Part shown: piece after piece, positions 1,164 to 12,259 of the stretch
Layout: each line of letters begins with the position of its first letter
Numbering within the stretch: position 1 is the first letter of the stretch
NCBI GenBank assembly: GCA_039000985.1
Contig: JAWBMD010000001.1
Coordinates: 1,877 to 65,876 of the forward strand
DNA: 64,000 nucleotides
Direction of reading: 5' to 3'
Source of the DNA: Candidatus Aenigmatarchaeota archaeon
GTDB taxonomy: Archaea > Aenigmatarchaeota > Aenigmatarchaeia > CG10238-14 > SpSt-28
The notes under the pieces: generated by a model
The model's input: the letters and a program-made list of their open reading frames with translations, nothing else
Databases searched by the model: none
What the model was told of the DNA's origin: nothing
Position numbers and translations under genes: made by a program

Positions 1164-2027
1164 TTGGGTATGTTAGTAAAAAAAATATTGGCTATTTTAT
1201 TTGTAACAATAATACCAATAGCATTTGCTCAACCAAATACAGATAGCGCAACAGTAAATGTACAAGTTTCTTCACTAACAGCAATAGATATAAACCCAGC
1301 GATCTTTAACTTTAACAACATAGCACCAGGAACAAATAGTAGCGCATTATTCTTTCAACTAGAAAACATTGGCTCAACTAATATAACAACAGTTTATTCA
1401 GATGTTACAACAACAACAAGTAATCCATATGGAACTGGTTCTGCAAACAATTATAATGCTGGCGAGTTTGTTAGAATAGATAATTCAACAAATGGAAACT
1501 TTTACTATGTTGAGAATAAAAACTGGAACGAATCCAAACCATTATATGTGACAGCACCAAGTGGTTGGAGCGAGGGAAATCAAACAGGTGCATCTTGGGG
1601 GTATTTTGTAAGGGTAAGAAGTGTTGGTTTAGAAACTAATGAAGGAGAGGAATATTTTGCAATAACTAGGAATGGTACAGCGACAAGTTGCAATTCAGGT
1701 ACTCTTTATATAGGTAAAACACCTCACACAAAATCTCAAACAGGTACAATAGACTTAGGAGGAGGTGATGCAGCACAAATAACCTTAGATAATAATGGAA
1801 AAGGTTCTTTAGCGGGCGCGGGAATAAATACTATAATGGATTCACATACAGTATTAGTTAGCAGCGATTGCCGTGCAGTATCTCTTATATATTGGAAAAA
1901 TGAAAAATCTTTGATAGGAAGTAGATTATATCCAGGAGCAGCTGTAGATATGAGAATAATGGTTAGTGTTCCATACGGTGTAGCTCAGGGTACAATAACA
2001 GGAACATTGACTGTTATAGCTTCATAA
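1164..2027 (+). CDS. Secreted cell-surface protein (N-terminal signal peptide, Thr/Asn-rich, many N-x-S/T sequons)
   Basis: Hydrophobic N-terminus MGMLVKKILAILFVTIIPIAFAQ. Low-complexity extracellular-type composition. First gene of a co-directional surface-protein cluster. Confidence 0.45.
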   Translation: MGMLVKKILAILFVTIIPIAFAQPNTDSATVNVQVSSLTAIDINPAIFNFNNIAPGTNSSALFFQLENIGSTNITTVYSDVTTTTSNPYGTGSANNYNAGEFVRIDNSTNGNFYYVENKNWNESKPLYVTAPSGWSEGNQTGASWGYFVRVRSVGLETNEGEEYFAITRNGTATSCNSGTLYIGKTPHTKSQTGTIDLGGGDAAQITLDNNGKGSLAGAGINTIMDSHTVLVSSDCRAVSLIYWKNEKSLIGSRLYPGAAVDMRIMVSVPYGVAQGTITGTLTVIAS

Positions 2028-2058
2028 AACTTTTATTTTTTTCTACCAATATCTAATT

Positions 2059-4266
2059 GTGAAAGCATTAATAATATTAGCAGTTTTACTGTTTTTTTCT
2101 GTATCTTTTTCATTTCCAATAATAGAAAGTGTCGAGCTTTTACCTTCAAACAATATTTATATTGGAGAAAACTTAACAGTTTCTGTTAAATGCATAGATC
2201 CAAATAGCACCATATCTAGAGTTTATGTAAAGATTTATAGCAATAATTTAATATTTCCAACTTTGGATTTGGATTATTCAATTGTTGAAAATAAATATAA
2301 AAGAACTTTGGAGAATAGTTATTTTGATAGAGAAGATACTTTTAATGTTGCTGTTTATTGTTCTAATGAGGAGAATGAGGCAAATGTTACTTATTTAACT
2401 TTAAATGTTTCAAGAATTTCTTCCCAAATAATTGTTGAGAATTTATATTATGTTGGAGATGTTATAGAATTAATATTTGCTCCAATGATTAATAATGAAG
2501 TGGTAATGAGTGATATACCAAAGGTTTATTTAAATAATCAAGAAAAGCAGCTTAAGCAATTACCATTATTTAGAATTAATAGTGGTTGGATATTAAAAAT
2601 AGATGCTCCATCTTTAGAGGGAAGTTATGAATTAAAAATTATATCCAATTACAATAGAGCTATAATTCAAGGTTCAAAAATAATAACTATTAAAAAACCA
2701 TTTCAAATAGAGATATTTAATTTAAATAATCACTTAGCCAAGCCAAAAGAAGTTTTAACAGCTTATTTTAAAGCATCGTTAAAAGGTCAAAATGTTGAGC
2801 TTGATAAAGATAATGTAAGATTTTTTATTGGTGATTTAACTTTAAACATAACTGAATTTGGAAAGCAAGGAGATGTTTATTTTGCAAAAATTTCTATTCC
2901 AGATTTAACATCTTCTTCATATGAGTTAAAAATTATTATAAATTATAATGGTTATACTGTTTCTTCATCGAAGGGTATTTCTATTTTAACACCAATATCC
3001 ATTAATTTGCCTCCAGGAACACACATTGAATTTTTATCAAATTCATACAAGTTTTCTTTTGTTTCTAATAATGATGGTGTTGCAATTGGCTCAATAGTTT
3101 TAGGTAATTATGATGTTAAAGTATGGAATAATAAGGCAACTATAATTTTATATAATGCTAACATTAACAACACAGATAATCCAATAAATTTTAGAGAAGT
3201 TGATATAGAGGTTGAAGGTTTTAATAATGCTGGTAGTTACTTATTTGAAACATCATTAAGTTATGAAAGAGCTTATCTAGAACTTTTCTATGATGAAAAT
3301 AAGGTTTTAGACGAAAACAAAGTAAAAGCTTTTAAATGTAATTTCTTTAATTTTGCTATTGGAAAGTGCATTAGTAGTTGGATAGAATTAAATAATTTTA
3401 CTTTGGATACTGTTAAAAATGTTGTTAGAATTTTTACTGATTCGCTTTCTTTATTTTTAGTTGGTAGCGAGAAAAATTTGAATTTGGAATTTTCTTTCGA
3501 TAAGCAAAAATACGCATTGGAAGATTTAGTAAAATTTAGTGGTTATGTTGTTGATGAATGGAATAGTAGAATGAAAAATATTAACATAACAATTGAAGTA
3601 ATTGGAACAAATATAAAACATAAAACAATTACAAATAATGATGGAGTTTTTTCAGGTAGTTTTATTGCTCCAAATAAAGAAGGAGAATTTACAGTAACTG
3701 TTAGTGCAATTACAAGATTTTCAAAATTAACAAAAAATTATAAATTGCTTGTTGAAAGAAAAAAAGAGATGTTTATTATATTTCCAGATTCTGTAAAAGT
3801 TAGTTTTGGAAAATTTGTTGAAGCAGAAATTACTATTAAAAATACTGGACAAGCAAATTTAACAAACATAACTATTGAAATAGAAGGTATTCCAAAAGAA
3901 TATTATAGAATAGATAATTCAACAATAGAATTTTTGGAAACTGGAAAAGATTTCAATACAAAAGTAATTTTTGAATTACCAATAAAACTAAATGAATCTT
4001 ACTTGCTAGCAAAAATAAAAGCAGTTAGTAATGAAGCGTTATATGAAAAATCTTTTGGTTTTTCGATAATTAAAGAGGAGCAAATAATAACAGCTAGGGT
4101 TGTTGAAATACCAAAAGTAAATATTTCTCAAGATTGGTTAATTATTTTAGGAATATTTTTAATATTTTTTTCATTTTTGCTTGGAAGAATTAGAAAAAGT
4201 AGAGAGAAAAGGAATATAAGTGAATTAAAGGAAGAAATAGAAAAAGCTTTAAGCAAAAATAAATGA
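2059..4266 (+). CDS. Large surface glycoprotein-like protein with signal peptide, internal repeats and a C-terminal TM anchor plus basic tail
   Basis: N-terminal signal sequence. Repeated SYELKII motifs. Numerous N-x-S/T sequons. C-terminal LIILGIFLIFFSFLLGRIRKSREKR anchor. Confidence 0.5.
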   Translation: MKALIILAVLLFFSVSFSFPIIESVELLPSNNIYIGENLTVSVKCIDPNSTISRVYVKIYSNNLIFPTLDLDYSIVENKYKRTLENSYFDREDTFNVAVYCSNEENEANVTYLTLNVSRISSQIIVENLYYVGDVIELIFAPMINNEVVMSDIPKVYLNNQEKQLKQLPLFRINSGWILKIDAPSLEGSYELKIISNYNRAIIQGSKIITIKKPFQIEIFNLNNHLAKPKEVLTAYFKASLKGQNVELDKDNVRFFIGDLTLNITEFGKQGDVYFAKISIPDLTSSSYELKIIINYNGYTVSSSKGISILTPISINLPPGTHIEFLSNSYKFSFVSNNDGVAIGSIVLGNYDVKVWNNKATIILYNANINNTDNPINFREVDIEVEGFNNAGSYLFETSLSYERAYLELFYDENKVLDENKVKAFKCNFFNFAIGKCISSWIELNNFTLDTVKNVVRIFTDSLSLFLVGSEKNLNLEFSFDKQKYALEDLVKFSGYVVDEWNSRMKNINITIEVIGTNIKHKTITNNDGVFSGSFIAPNKEGEFTVTVSAITRFSKLTKNYKLLVERKKEMFIIFPDSVKVSFGKFVEAEITIKNTGQANLTNITIEIEGIPKEYYRIDNSTIEFLETGKDFNTKVIFELPIKLNESYLLAKIKAVSNEALYEKSFGFSIIKEEQIITARVVEIPKVNISQDWLIILGIFLIFFSFLLGRIRKSREKRNISELKEEIEKALSKNK

Positions 4267-5510
4267 AAAAAGTCTTATTTTTATTGTTTCTTATTTTTAT
4301 ATCTCTCTCAAAATCAGAAAGCTATATAAATGTTTCCATTGCAGAAAAAGACGATTTAGTAATAAGGCTATCTTTTAAGCCAGTTATATACATTGGATTG
4401 CTTCAAATAGGAAATCAAACTTTTTTAAATTTAACAGATATTCAAGTAATTCATTCAGAAATAATAAATATTGGTAGCACTAATTTGACAATAAAAAATT
4501 TTCTTTTAGAAATTTTATTTTTTGAAGGGGGAAGATTTATTCAACTAGCTAATTATACTGATTATTTTTTACCATCAAACTTGCTTCCAGGACAAAAACA
4601 TTATTTTAATGCAAGTTATGCTCCAGATAGATTGGGTGTGCATTACATAAGAGCTACTATTGAATATAATAACAGAAGAGCTATAGCTTTTGGAATTTTT
4701 TCTGTATTGTTGCCACCAATAATAGTTCCAGTACAACAACCACCAATCACAAGAGAAGTTCTTATTCCAAAGATAATTCATTTAAAACCACCGGTTTTGC
4801 AAATAATAGCACCAAATACAATTGATATGTTTAAAGGTGGGAATGAAAGTATTGTAATAATAGTGAAAAATGTTGGTGAAAGAGAAGCTTTTAGTTTAAG
4901 ACCTCATGTTTCAATACCAAAGCAGTTTGACTTTTCAATAGCTCCATTATATGTAGCTATTTTAAAACCAAATGAGTCAGTACCTTTTTTGTTAGCTTTA
5001 CATGTTGATAAAAATGCTTTAGAAGGAGTTTATCCAGTATCTTTTGAAATTGTTGCGAATGAGACATCAGCATCCAAAACTATTTATGTAAATGTAAGAG
5101 AATTACCTAAAATAATAGATTTTTGTGAAGATGCAAGAAATAAAATTTTAAGTTTTGAATTTATGTTAGTTTTGATAAGGTCGAGAATTTATTCATTTTA
5201 TTTAAAAGGAGCTGATGTTAAATCTGTTAATGATACTGTTATTATAATAGAAAGCAATATAACTAAAGCTAAAATTTTAGTTGATGAAAATAAATGTTTA
5301 GAAGCTTTACAAGTTTTGGAAGAGGTTAGAGTTTTAATAGAAAGAGTTTTGATAGAATTAGAAACAATATTGTTGATTCCAAAATATGTCCCAGGTTATT
5401 TCTTTATAATAGCTATTTGCTTAATAGTATTTGTTCCAATATTTGTTTTTATTTTGGTAAAGAGAAGAAAAAGAAGGCCAAAATTATTAAAACATTTGAA
5501 AGTTGAATAA
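4263..5510 (+). CDS. Surface-anchored protein (signal peptide, C-terminal TM plus RRKRRPK tail)
   Basis: Signal peptide MKKVLFLLFLIFISLS. C-terminal TM IIAICLIVFVPIFVFILV followed by KRRKRRPKLLKHLKVE. The last 30 nt plus 3'UTR are duplicated 962 bp downstream. Confidence 0.5.
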   Translation: MKKVLFLLFLIFISLSKSESYINVSIAEKDDLVIRLSFKPVIYIGLLQIGNQTFLNLTDIQVIHSEIINIGSTNLTIKNFLLEILFFEGGRFIQLANYTDYFLPSNLLPGQKHYFNASYAPDRLGVHYIRATIEYNNRRAIAFGIFSVLLPPIIVPVQQPPITREVLIPKIIHLKPPVLQIIAPNTIDMFKGGNESIVIIVKNVGEREAFSLRPHVSIPKQFDFSIAPLYVAILKPNESVPFLLALHVDKNALEGVYPVSFEIVANETSASKTIYVNVRELPKIIDFCEDARNKILSFEFMLVLIRSRIYSFYLKGADVKSVNDTVIIIESNITKAKILVDENKCLEALQVLEEVRVLIERVLIELETILLIPKYVPGYFFIIAICLIVFVPIFVFILVKRRKRRPKLLKHLKVE

Positions 5511-5527
5511 ATGCTTTTTGGTAAAAT
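5470..5527. repeat. Direct repeat copy 1 (58 bp, ~93% identical to 6432-6489); spans the stop codon of the 4263-5510 gene
   Basis: aaagaaggccaaaattattaaaacatttgaaagttgaataaatgctttttggtaaaat versus copy 2 aaagaaagccaaaattgttaagacatttgaaagttgaataaatgctttttggtagaat. Confidence 0.8.
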
Positions 5528-6007
5528 TTGTTCACAACATATACTTAAAATAAGATGGATATGTTTAAAACCTCTTTTTTTATAAATGATCTTTTACTAA
5601 TTTAGTTTATATCTAAAGATATAGTGATTATAAAAATAATTATATATAGTGATATTAGCTATAGTCTGGTATTTTCTTTAGAGTAATATTTGGAGTAGAT
5701 TCACATGGTTTGAGAATTTGTAAAAGGAGCTTTAATTAGTGAATGCACGAATTCTAAATTATTCCTATGGTTTGCTAACAAGTTAAGTAAAATATCAGTT
5801 GAATATCGTTCGGCAAAAATGTTAGCTAAACTTGGTCTTAAAGGTGTTTTAACTTCAGATGATAATGGTACTTTTAGTATAAGTTGTTCACAAATTAAAG
5901 ACATCTGTAATCTTGTAATCTTCATGGAATTTCTTAGTAAGTTAGTCAAATCTTCTATATCAAAGATTTATTTTTTGCATTTATGTAATGGTTTTTATAT
6001 TTAATTT

Positions 6008-6379
6008 ATGTCTGATGGTTTATTATTTAAAATAGTAACTTCATCAAAAATTGTATGGATAGTAGGAGTAATTCTACTGGTAGCTCTGATAATGGTTATT
6101 TTAAATAGAGTTATTTACTTTCCTAAAAGTTGTGTCTACTATGATGAACGTATATGTTTATCGTCTTTAAGAGTTGGGTGTGGAATTTGTGAAATAACTG
6201 ATGGGTGGAAGAATGAATATATTACAGTAGATATAAGAGGTTGTTCCAGAGAAATATTATCAGATTATTTAAGTCCTAGCTTAGCTAAGGATCCTGATGC
6301 AAATTGTACAACTATTTATAAATGTGGTGAGCTTAAGGACTTTTGTAGGTGGTACGGATTTAATGTATCCGATGTATAG
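6008..6379 (+). CDS. Small membrane-anchored cysteine-rich hypothetical protein (cargo of the repeat-flanked cassette)
   Basis: N-terminal TM VWIVGVILLVALIMVIL followed by a Cys-rich domain with 8 Cys. The region looks less AT-rich than its surroundings. Confidence 0.35.
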   Translation: MSDGLLFKIVTSSKIVWIVGVILLVALIMVILNRVIYFPKSCVYYDERICLSSLRVGCGICEITDGWKNEYITVDIRGCSREILSDYLSPSLAKDPDANCTTIYKCGELKDFCRWYGFNVSDV

Positions 6380-6431
6380 ATATCTTTATAACTAAGGAAT
6401 TTGTTTATTCCGATATTTCTTTTTATTTTAA

Positions 6432-6489
6432 AAAGAAAGCCAAAATTGTTAAGACATTTGAAAGTTGAATAAATGCTTTTTGGTAGAAT
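6432..6489. repeat. Direct repeat copy 2 (58 bp), closing a ~0.96-kb cassette
   Basis: Four mismatches to copy 1 and no indels. Flanking sequence is unrelated on both sides. Confidence 0.8.
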
Positions 6490-6654
6490 AAAGCAAAAAA
6501 GTTTTTTTATTTAGGGTTTAAATGTTTATAATTGTAATATAAATTTGAACCATATGGTAAAAATGATTGAACTTATCACAAATAAGCCAAAAGCTTTCTT
6601 TTTACTTATCCAACTCATGAGTTTTCTCAAACTACTTTAATATCGAAACTAAAA

Positions 6655-7092
6655 ATGGCAAAGCCAACAGTAATCAAAGCATTAAATTATTTAGAGAAAA
6701 ATAATTTAGTTTTAACAAAAAGAGTTGGTAGGGTAAAGTTTTACAGATTAAATAGGCATAGCTTTTTTGTATTTCAATTGAAAAAACTTTTTAATTTTAC
6801 TTCCAATATCCTACTTGAATTAATAGAGAAATTGAAAGAAGCTAAGAAGATAATAGTTTTCGGATCTTATGCGAGGGGTGAGGATGTTGAAGAGTCAGAT
6901 ATAGATGTGCTTGTAGTTACAGATATAAAAGATGAGTTTGTTCAGAAAGTTGCTTCATCACTTTCTCGCAAGTATGGAAAAAGGTTAGCATTCATTACAC
7001 GCACACCAGAAGAGTATGTAAAAATGGTAGATAAAGAAAGGGAATTGTTGGAAAGAGCAGTGCTTCAAGGTGTGATAATTCATGAGGCTTGA
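6655..7092 (+). CDS. Minimal nucleotidyltransferase (MNT) antitoxin-like protein with N-terminal winged-helix extension
   Basis: GSxxxG...DxD NTase motif GSYARGEDVEESDIDVLVV. Immediately followed by a HEPN gene. Confidence 0.65.
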   Translation: MAKPTVIKALNYLEKNNLVLTKRVGRVKFYRLNRHSFFVFQLKKLFNFTSNILLELIEKLKEAKKIIVFGSYARGEDVEESDIDVLVVTDIKDEFVQKVASSLSRKYGKRLAFITRTPEEYVKMVDKERELLERAVLQGVIIHEA

Positions 7093-7177
7093 TTTCGAAG
7101 CTTGTTTAAAGAAATGAAAACTTGTTAAAATAAAGCCAGATAAAGAGCTTGCGCTTATTGAATTAAAGGAGGCAAAA

Positions 7178-7444
7178 TTGGATTTAGTAAGCGCTCAAGA
7201 AGAAATTAAGAAAAAGAGCTGGAAGTGGTCTGTTGAGAAAGCTTATTATGCAATGTTTCACGCATCTAGAAGTCTTTTGTTGTTAAAGGGTTATAAGGAG
7301 AGAAGACATCGTTGCTTGCTTATAGGATTAAAAGAACTTTTTGTTAAGACAGCGCAAATATCTCAGGAATATTTTGATTTTATAGAAACTGCTAAATTTA
7401 GGAGGAAGACGCTATTTATACTTCACGATATAATGAAGAAATAG
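7178..7444 (+). CDS. HEPN-domain protein (toxin partner of MNT)
   Basis: Small all-helical protein with an AYYAMFHASRSLL...KERRHRC region resembling an HEPN R-x(n)-H motif. Sits in an MNT-HEPN gene pair arrangement. Confidence 0.55.
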   Translation: MDLVSAQEEIKKKSWKWSVEKAYYAMFHASRSLLLLKGYKERRHRCLLIGLKELFVKTAQISQEYFDFIETAKFRRKTLFILHDIMKK

Positions 7445-7509
7445 CAGTAACACATGTAAATAATGCAGCTAAATTTATTCAAATGGCTGAAAAGCTTATA
7501 AAATTTTTA

Positions 7510-7584
7510 TGCCCCAGGCGGGATTTGAACCCGCGACCTACGCCTTAGGAGGGCGCCGCTCTATCCAAACTGAGCTACTGGGGC
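7510..7584 (-). tRNA. tRNA-Arg (anticodon CCU)
   Basis: Reverse complement folds as a cloverleaf: acceptor GCCCCAG/CTGGGGC, anticodon stem GCGCC/GGCGT, loop CTCCTAA, T-arm GCGGG-TTCAAAT-CCCGC. 75 nt, discriminator A. Confidence 0.85.
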
Positions 7585-11758: not shown

Positions 11759-12259
11759 CTATTTTGGAAATATAAAAATAATTACTAGAAATGCCAAAAT
11801 TGCTAAAACATATATTATGAATTCGATAGGAATTCTCGTTAAACGAGACATTTCACTAATGAATTCAATTCTTTGAATAATTTCCAATGATTGAAATATA
11901 ATTATTACACATAATACAGCAACTCCGATAGATGTTAACCACCCTTTATTAGAGGCAGATAAAACAGATATTAGAGCAAATGAGAACAATGTAGCTAGAA
12001 TAATAAAGTTAGTAATTTCTGAATATGCAGGTAATACATTTTCCAATAGTTTTGATAATGGTGGATAAACTAACATAATTAGTATGAAAAAAACAACTAT
12101 TCCTATTAAAGCTCTAACAATTTCTTTTCTTCTTATCGCATCTATTGTAGCAAGGGCAAAAGGTATTAGTAATAAAGATTCATTACTTCTACCACTAAAT
12201 AATAGAAATAAAACTATAGTAAGTACTATTATAGCAAGCAATAAATCTTTTATACCCAC
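11759..12259 (-). CDS. Membrane protein, unknown
   Basis: Multiple hydrophobic segments. Confidence 0.35.
   Translation of the reverse strand: MGIKDLLLAIIVLTIVLFLLFSGRSNESLLLIPFALATIDAIRRKEIVRALIGIVVFFILIMLVYPPLSKLLENVLPAYSEITNFIILATLFSFALISVLSASNKGWLTSIGVAVLCVIIIFQSLEIIQRIEFISEMSRLTRIPIEFIIYVLAILAFLVIIFIFPK

Follow-up and report, generated by a model that had tools for sequence, protein, structure and literature searches.

When a suicide plasmid with a cloned chromosomal fragment integrates by a Campbell-type single crossover, a direct duplication comes to flank the insert, and the two copies are mosaics if the recombining segments differ. In Escherichia coli, the element e14 and phage 21 are found in the 3' end of a protein-coding gene, icd, and in the case of e14 the incoming DNA supplies an alternative 3' end while the displaced original end stays behind as a pseudo-fragment (PMC6379469). 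Genomic islands have likewise been described as marked at their ends by a regenerated target and a displaced fragment (PMC4383910). Here we describe a locus with this kind of geometry in a 64-kb stretch of DNA (the window; GC content, 26.9%) from a metagenome-assembled genome (MAG) of Candidatus Aenigmatarchaeota, a member of the DPANN archaea, where a direct repeat derived from the 3' end of a surface-protein gene brackets 876 bp of unique DNA. With moderate confidence, we interpret this stretch as the scar of a Campbell-type insertion at the 3' end of the gene, whose tail would have been regenerated in the process.

The putative target gene (4263–5510, plus strand) is intact in the list of open reading frames (ORFs) and encodes a surface-anchored protein of 415 aa. 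As an earlier note on this DNA had reported, positions 5470–5527 and 6432–6489 are identical at 54 of 58 positions without indels (mismatches at 5476, 5486, 5491 and 5524) and at a spacing of 962 bp; a repeat finder returned 5468–5527 and 6430–6489 (56/60, 93%) at this same spacing. The repeat proved longer than claimed, however, because 5430–5455 and 6404–6429 are also identical at 23 of 26 positions, with 12 nt between the two blocks that are present only in copy 1. The full repeat thus comprises 98 nt in copy 1 (5430–5527) and 86 nt in copy 2 (6404–6489), separated by seven substitutions and one 12-nt indel (E = 1.5e-22 by blastn against the window), and the longest identical run between the copies is 32 nt (5492–5523 = 6454–6485). 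No other repeat in the 64 kb exceeded 83% identity, and a 33-nt degenerate pattern of the repeat core occurred exactly twice in the window, with 0 occurrences expected from shuffled sequences.

Copy 1 (5430–5527, plus strand), in the attL-like position, contains the end of the gene, its stop codon and part of the 3' flank, as first described, but the coding part amounts to the last 26 codons instead of about 10. These codons and the stop occupy 5430–5510 (tail FVPIFVFILVKRRKRRPKLLKHLKVE) and are followed by 17 nt of 3' flank (ATGCTTTTTGGTAAAAT) with a T5 run (GCTTTTTGG). Copy 2 (6404–6489, plus strand), the attR-like relic, begins with the left block 6404–6429 (TTTATTCCGATATTTCTTTTTATTTT) and encodes the truncated tail FIPIFLFILKRKPKLLRHLKVE*, again followed by the 17-nt flank. 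Its frame is that of the upstream ORF at 6008–6379, from which it is cut off by a TAG and a TAA, in agreement with the earlier note. The homology of copy 2 to the gene ends in the middle of the segment coding for the transmembrane (TM) helix, so copy 2 is a fragment that holds no complete anchor. An intact host gene accompanied by a fragmentary second copy of its end is the geometry of a regenerated target plus a displaced fragment, and this supports insertion.

Comparison with relatives points in the same direction. The closest one, Logan contig L007 (SRR21619494), is colinear with the window at 90% nucleotide identity over a segment that starts at the end of the 735-aa gene upstream and takes in the entire 415-aa gene. 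There, the stop codon of the gene (TAA) directly abuts the 3' end of a tRNA-Arg(CCT), positions 1511–1548 of the contig being identical to window positions 7509–7546 (38/38). In the window, the same tRNA is found at 7510–7584 on the minus strand (ARAGORN and Rfam), and an additional stretch of about 2 kb (5511–7509) separates it from the stop codon. Since the L007 stop abuts the tRNA, this block, which includes the cassette, copy 2 and a decayed HEPN/MNT module, is a lineage-specific insertion; L007 is devoid of the insert, of the module and of the 17-nt flank alike. In a more distant orthologue (L008, 56% aa identity), a convergent tRNA-Ala(GGC) also abuts the stop codon. No partial copy of tRNA-Arg was found within 5511–7509, so the tRNA is not the duplicated att sequence. 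Because L007 lacks the whole 2-kb block and not just the cassette, the insertion point is better described as a variable spot at the junction of the gene stop and tRNA-Arg, where at least two events took place; DNA has demonstrably been gained and lost in this neighborhood. The junction itself is unusually tight, with a spacer of 0–1 nt in L007 (1500–1548) and L008 (2825–2910).

A three-way comparison of copy 1, copy 2 and L007 revealed a mosaic pattern. At the left-hand sites (5433, 5438 and 5445) and at the 12-nt indel, copy 1 has the same state as L007, from which copy 2 deviates; at the right-hand sites (5476, 5486 and 5491) it is copy 1 that deviates, whereas copy 2 and L007 are alike. 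The diagnostic positions 5476/5486/5491...5524 (= 6438/6448/6453...6486) read G-A-A...A in copy 1 and A-G-G...G in copy 2. The putative exchange window, AAAAAGAA (5468–5475 = 6430–6437, plus strand), lies between the 12-nt indel and the first informative site on the right. This pattern matches what attL and attR would look like after a single reciprocal exchange between an L007-like attB and a diverged attP, and we take it as suggestive of such an event (Fisher p = 0.10 for the substitutions alone and 0.029 when the indel is included). Moreover, the divergence of copy 2 is uneven, with at most one change in its right half and flank (60 nt) and three changes plus the deletion in its left 26 nt. 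Such a distribution is unexpected for an in-situ duplicate that decays uniformly, and argues weakly against simple decay.

In the sequence of events that we favor, the donor DNA would have measured about 962 bp, or would have been larger and later reduced by deletion, and probably took part as a circle or another donor intermediate. It would have carried its own diverged copy of the last 22–26 codons or so of the gene, with the stop codon and the 17-nt flank. A single reciprocal crossover between the donor tail and the chromosomal tail, presumably in or near AAAAAGAA at 5468–5475, would have regenerated the gene with a slightly altered tail (RRPKLLKHLKVE; the relative has the K-P...L-R-H form) that retained the oligo-T terminator. 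The displaced end of the native tail would have been left 962 bp downstream as a non-functional relic, which is copy 2, and the inserted DNA would have contributed one plausible gene, ORF123, for a predicted small membrane-anchored, Cys-rich protein. The crossover may well have occurred inside a block that probably already held the HEPN/MNT module. The exchange may have been either homologous or site-specific, in the latter case with a recombinase that acted in trans or has since been lost through deletion of a larger element.

Several observations weigh against an insertion of this kind. The unique DNA between the copies (5528–6403, 876 bp, plus strand) has a GC content of 0.272, versus a window mean of 0.269, which places it at the 58th percentile among tiles of the same size, and its codon usage is also native. 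It is not similar to any other part of the window or to the related loci, where no further copy of it was found either, and it matched nothing among plasmids, phages and IMG/VR. The impression in the earlier note that the insert was less AT-rich than the genome was thus mistaken, and its suggestion of a captured foreign cassette or mobile element finds no support in the native composition and the lack of viral or plasmid matches. Its statement that no integrase could be recognized was borne out: no integrase, transposase or replication gene was found in the insert or among the Pfam-annotated genes, which cover about 1–58 kb of the window. A word-indexed search with ORF123 among 5.8 billion proteins returned only the protein itself. 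No empty site was found for the 962-bp unit as such, as the three same-species MAGs are all filled (3/3), with zero differences across the region.

The mosaic is also open to objection. It consists of only six substitutions and one indel, and L007 is a mere proxy for the pre-insertion sequence. Lys and Arg toggle at the same positions in distant orthologues (P0005 has RPKLLK, like copy 1), which makes the polarity of the changes uncertain. The 12-nt indel falls within an AAG/AGA-rich run prone to triplet slippage, and A<->G transitions account for five of the seven substitutions, so the "coding-like" character of the divergence between the copies is weak evidence.

Much of this fits the main competing explanation, an in-situ rearrangement. 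The 876 bp would already have been resident, and a piece of about 100 nt from the gene tail would have been copied ectopically downstream, copy 2 having decayed since. Filler DNA at a break, template switching, or a tandem duplication followed by deletion could serve as routes. The native GC and codon usage, the lack of a recombinase gene and of any second copy or homologue of the insert, the identity of the three same-species assemblies at this place and the statistical weakness of the mosaic are all in its favor, and the three derived changes of copy 1 fit the ordinary divergence of about 9% between the gene and L007. Nevertheless, it would require that the right 60 nt of copy 2 stayed nearly unchanged (0–1 changes) while the constrained, functional copy gained three changes in 43 nt, and that the left 26 nt of copy 2 gained three changes and a deletion. 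The tandem-duplication route needs an extra, precise deletion. The DNA between the copies, 876 bp, is unique and unduplicated. We know of no mechanism that would favor the copying of exactly a gene tail with its terminator, which we also count against this explanation. On balance, we regard it as possible, albeit rather unlikely.

The att-site duplication proposed in the earlier note accordingly holds in its geometry, in the lack of this DNA in L007 and in a weak mosaic, but no empty site for the 962-bp unit itself exists among the sequences compared and an in-situ duplication is possible. The same division applies to the search for an empty site that the note had recommended. At the level of the lineage, L007 is indeed without the insert, but what it lacks is the larger 2-kb block, and the MAGs of the same species are all filled. 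The note had further held that native composition together with the lack of an empty site would indicate a simple local duplication; by that rule the outcome is intermediate, as the composition is indeed native and no empty site turned up among strains, but a lineage-level empty site exists.

Another explanation is that the gene or its operon, together with the downstream 876 bp, was imported from a related strain by allelic replacement. An illegitimate right junction in the TM region of the old allele would then have left its last 22 codons or so as copy 2. Variability is typical of surface-protein genes, copy 2 matches L007 in its right half at three sites that have changed in the present gene, and the divergence between the copies includes synonymous and conservative changes and an in-frame indel, all of which speak in favor of it. 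However, an old native allele should resemble L007 more closely than copy 1 does, and the left part of copy 2 resembles it less. In addition, the gene is uniformly about 9% divergent from L007, and no obvious breakpoint appeared in 100-nt bins except in the signal-peptide region. We consider this explanation unlikely.

The arrangement is well supported at the level of assemblies. Three MAGs of the species, assembled independently, contain repeat, insert and repeat. Among the contigs concerned are L001/L012, of which L001 (contig JAWCHB010000002.1 of GCA_039091915.1) is 99.98% identical to the window, and one contig of GCA_044343585.1 (L005, 99.6% identity). Each segment of the arrangement is also present in Logan unitigs from three runs (L002–L004, L006 and L013). 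These unitigs, built with k = 31, break at the 32-mer shared by the two copies: L002–L004 end at 5521–5523, L006 spans 5494–6483 and L013 starts at 6456. As a result, the order of gene, insert and MNT gene cannot be distinguished at k = 31 from a chromosome accompanied by a separate circle, and an assembly artefact could be envisaged in which a free circle of about 962 bp, or a strain variant, was threaded into the chromosomal contig through the 32-nt exact stretch. Such an artefact is very improbable, given that both copies lie in the same order on each of three MAG contigs, which come from different assemblies, and that a repeat of only 60–98 nt with mismatches should be resolved by 150-nt reads and large-k assembly. 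We also examined the idea that the breaks of the Logan contigs reflect an insertion polymorphism, and rejected it, as the 32-nt exact repeat explains them at this k.

A different kind of break occurs at the other end of the 2-kb block. Contig L013 (= window 6456–7539), identical in 4 samples, ends exactly 30 nt (k-1) into tRNA-Arg, which indicates that more than one sequence joins the 3' end of the tRNA at about 7509/7510 in those samples. This fits either a co-occurring strain with another arrangement or a related organism with the same tRNA sequence. Searches of wider collections added little: the repeat-core pattern had 0 matches in the JGI metagenomes and IMG/VR, the pattern of the L007-type gene/tRNA junction had 0 matches in the JGI metagenomes, and a search for the gene family among the GTDB species representatives returned a single truncated locus (L010 = L011), which is uninformative.

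The locus resembles the described systems to different degrees. With e14 and phage 21 at icd it shares an insert in the 3' end of a protein gene, an intact gene at the attL-like end, whose 3' end shows a few conservative or synonymous differences, and a short counterpart of pseudo-icd' at the attR-like end. The repeats are 163 bp long at icd and 86–98 nt here, and e14 is a prophage-like element of about 15 kb with its own integrase and demonstrated excision, whereas the unit described here has 962 bp, no recombinase, native composition and a DPANN host. The islands in tRNA and tmRNA genes (Islander-type, and pNOB8-type in archaea) follow the same principle, and the present site adjoins the 3' end of a tRNA; however, the duplicated sequence is here a protein-gene tail, no partial tRNA-Arg copy is present, and there is no integrase. 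Campbell-type homologous integration would also leave a reciprocal mosaic such as the suggestive one seen here with respect to L007, but the homology is very short in our case (32 nt in its longest run) and no donor molecule is known.

Archaeal integron cassettes, and clusters of attC sites lacking integron integrases (CALINs), were a further candidate, with the two repeats as attC sites. Integrons and CALINs have been reported in archaeal MAGs that include Aenigmatarchaeota (PMC9668308), and a unit of about 1 kb with a single ORF is cassette-like. Yet the repeat consists of coding sequence from the end of a gene, and it offers only the inverted arms CCAAAA/TTTTGG, with no paired RYYYAAC...GTTRRRY cores; GTTGAAT occurs alone, with no RYYYAAC to complement it. 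The folds of the 60-nt repeats were not significantly different from those of shuffled sequences (z from -0.7 to -1.8), no IntI is encoded among the annotated genes of the window (about 1–58 kb), and the Rfam matches were to tRNA only. An integron origin is hardly credible on these grounds.

Within copy 2 there is, in any case, a perfect 10-bp palindrome, TTTCTTTTTA-TTT-TAAAAAGAAA (6416–6438), which straddles the junction between its left and right blocks. The DNA of copy 2 folds with -11.6 kcal/mol (z = -3.3; 0 of 200 shuffles as good), while the fold of copy 1 is not significant. The palindrome arises from the 12-nt deletion together with a G>C change at 6419. Possible roles are those of a terminator or a recombinase site, but it could equally be a by-product of coding bias and may in that case reflect no more than T-rich (hydrophobic) codons followed by A-rich (Lys/Arg) codons.

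Plausibly, the finding adds an example from an unusual host to a kind of scar that is already known. On present evidence, the insert is single, immobile and orphan, not a proven mobile element, and its general importance is limited as a result. If the insertion did take place as we propose, it would illustrate how the ultra-small, gene-poor genomes of DPANN archaea gain lineage-specific membrane or surface genes without damage to the target gene. The two repeat copies can recombine with each other and delete the cassette, a polymorphism that could be sought in the source metagenomes. An empty or excised chromosome would join the left part of copy 1, including its 12 nt, to the right part of copy 2 and then to AAAGCAAAAAAG. 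A free circle or a tandem copy would join 6404–6429 (TTTATTCCGATATTTCTTTTTATTTT) to AAAAAGAAGGCC...GGTAAAATTTGTTCAC. A bolder version of the same idea, which we hold to be quite improbable, sees in the 962-bp unit a miniature integrative cassette of DPANN archaea that has no integrase of its own and is mobilized in trans or by the homologous recombination of the host. It would then target the tail of a membrane anchor, carry a replacement tail that allows the host gene to survive, and deliver a small Cys-rich membrane protein. Such a unit would constitute a previously undescribed minimal mobile cassette of archaea and a route for swapping the C-termini of surface proteins.

The coding content of the insert corresponds to the small orphan ORFs pointed out in the earlier note, among them the Cys-rich membrane peptide, which are present and have no homologues. 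The most relevant of them, ORF123 (6008–6379, plus strand), encodes an orphan protein of 123 aa (95 aa in the NCBI annotation) with a predicted N-terminal TM helix and a Cys-rich C-terminal part (8 Cys). It is probably a real gene, judging from a long open frame at a composition (27% GC genome) where a stop is expected about every 12 codons, and is presumably expressed. Its codon-usage score is 0.308, compared with 0.312 for Rpp21, a bona fide small gene. Exhaustive HMMER searches among 1.84 billion representatives yielded ORF123 itself and three weak matches only; these three were rejected as spurious, as they are internally repetitive proteins in which multiple short stretches were matched. 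In an AlphaFold2 (AF2) model of the protein (mean predicted local distance difference test, pLDDT, 52), the TM helix is the sole confident part.

Upstream of ORF123, a run of 96 open codons (5714–6001, plus strand) that shares its frame with ORF123 and with the tail in copy 2 includes a 61-aa ORF (5819–6004). The probability of such a run is about 2e-4 at the local composition and its codon score is 0.25, and it may be coding or formerly coding. An ORF of 82 aa on the minus strand (5701–5949) overlaps it. None of the three ORFs of the cassette gave a match in Pfam or PHROGs. That the cassette might be a degenerate paralogue of the 415-aa gene was also considered and rejected (hhalign E = 0.34 and 0.58, with a weak DNA match in another register).

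No terminal inverted repeats pair the ends of the insert (5528 and 6403). Neither the short target-site duplication nor the multiple copies that define insertion sequences (IS) and miniature inverted-repeat transposable elements (MITEs) were found in the 64 kb, where the flanking repeat measures 60–98 nt and the insert is single-copy. An inverted repeat of 28 nt (23/28 complementary) does connect 5525–5552 with 5869–5896, enclosing 316 nt. Its left arm starts exactly at the end of copy 1. It is not flanked by a target-site duplication, occurs only once in the window and is of borderline significance, with a blastn E of 0.23 against the whole window and smaller values for the local region. Scans for bacterial promoters and terminators are uninformative for an archaeon.

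The second component of the 2-kb block is a decayed toxin-antitoxin module (6516–7509, plus strand) composed of a winged helix-turn-helix MNT (minimal nucleotidyltransferase) gene and a HEPN gene (Pfam NTP_transf_2/Polbeta and HEPN). It lies outside the repeat-bracketed unit, and the 17-nt flank common to both copies, which is absent from L007, lies before it. Most likely, the module arrived in a separate, earlier event. At the nucleotide level, it is 68–72% identical to two other modules, an intact one (L016; 182 and 152 aa) and that of Logan contig L017. Relative to L016, the MNT gene of the window has one frameshift, in the N-terminal winged helix, and the HEPN gene has one nonsense codon (an in-frame TGA) and one frameshift near 7405. 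The corrected HEPN frame has no stop of its own and reads into tRNA-Arg at 7510. These lesions, set against the intact pair of L016, identify the module as a decayed member of the type II HEPN/MNT class. They are identical in all assemblies of the same species.

The module of L016 has an unrelated genomic context. That of L017 (1–1083, Logan SRR21619491), 72% identical to window 6515–7466, begins 16 nt past the 3' end of another tRNA, which is on the plus strand. This position indicates that such modules move and that tRNA-flanking positions receive them; HEPN/MNT modules thus seem to land beside tRNA genes and then decay. The MNT gene of L017 is frameshifted in a poly-A run, and its HEPN gene also looks degraded.

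The 415-aa gene is the last of three surface-protein genes on the plus strand (1164–2027, 2059–4266 and 4263–5510), which encode 287, 735 and 415 aa, with a stop/start overlap at 4263–4266 between the last two. The region 1164–5510 looks like one surface-structure operon. The two larger proteins (735 and 415 aa) have C-terminal TM anchors, and the 287-aa protein has a pilin-like N-terminus, as does its homologue at L009 3292–3516. The family of this operon is confined to a handful of Aenigmatarchaeota sequences.

For the 415-aa protein, only five homologues were found among 5.8 billion proteins; two have a named source, in both cases Aenigmatarchaeota, and the other three have none. The basic tail is kept throughout the family as (K/R)RRK..(K/R)PKLL..(K)VE. 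In an AF2 model based on a five-sequence alignment (pLDDT 72), a signal helix is followed by two beta-sandwich domains and a helical stalk, with a TM helix at the C-terminus. Foldseek matched it to Ig-like/adhesin beta-sandwich and scaffold domains, and a weak Pfam match to NPCBM_assoc/NEW3 was obtained. The model makes "surface protein" a reasonable label for the predicted product.

The locus is surrounded by housekeeping genes of archaeal type (Rpp21, a SPOUT methyltransferase, eIF2-beta and primase). The window differs from the L005 contig at 27 positions, 26 of which are concentrated within 240 nt (11836–12076), while the preceding 6.2 kb are identical. These changes fall inside the gene for a 166-aa membrane protein (11759–12259, minus strand), just before the end of the L005 contig, in what looks like a strain-variable or recombined patch.

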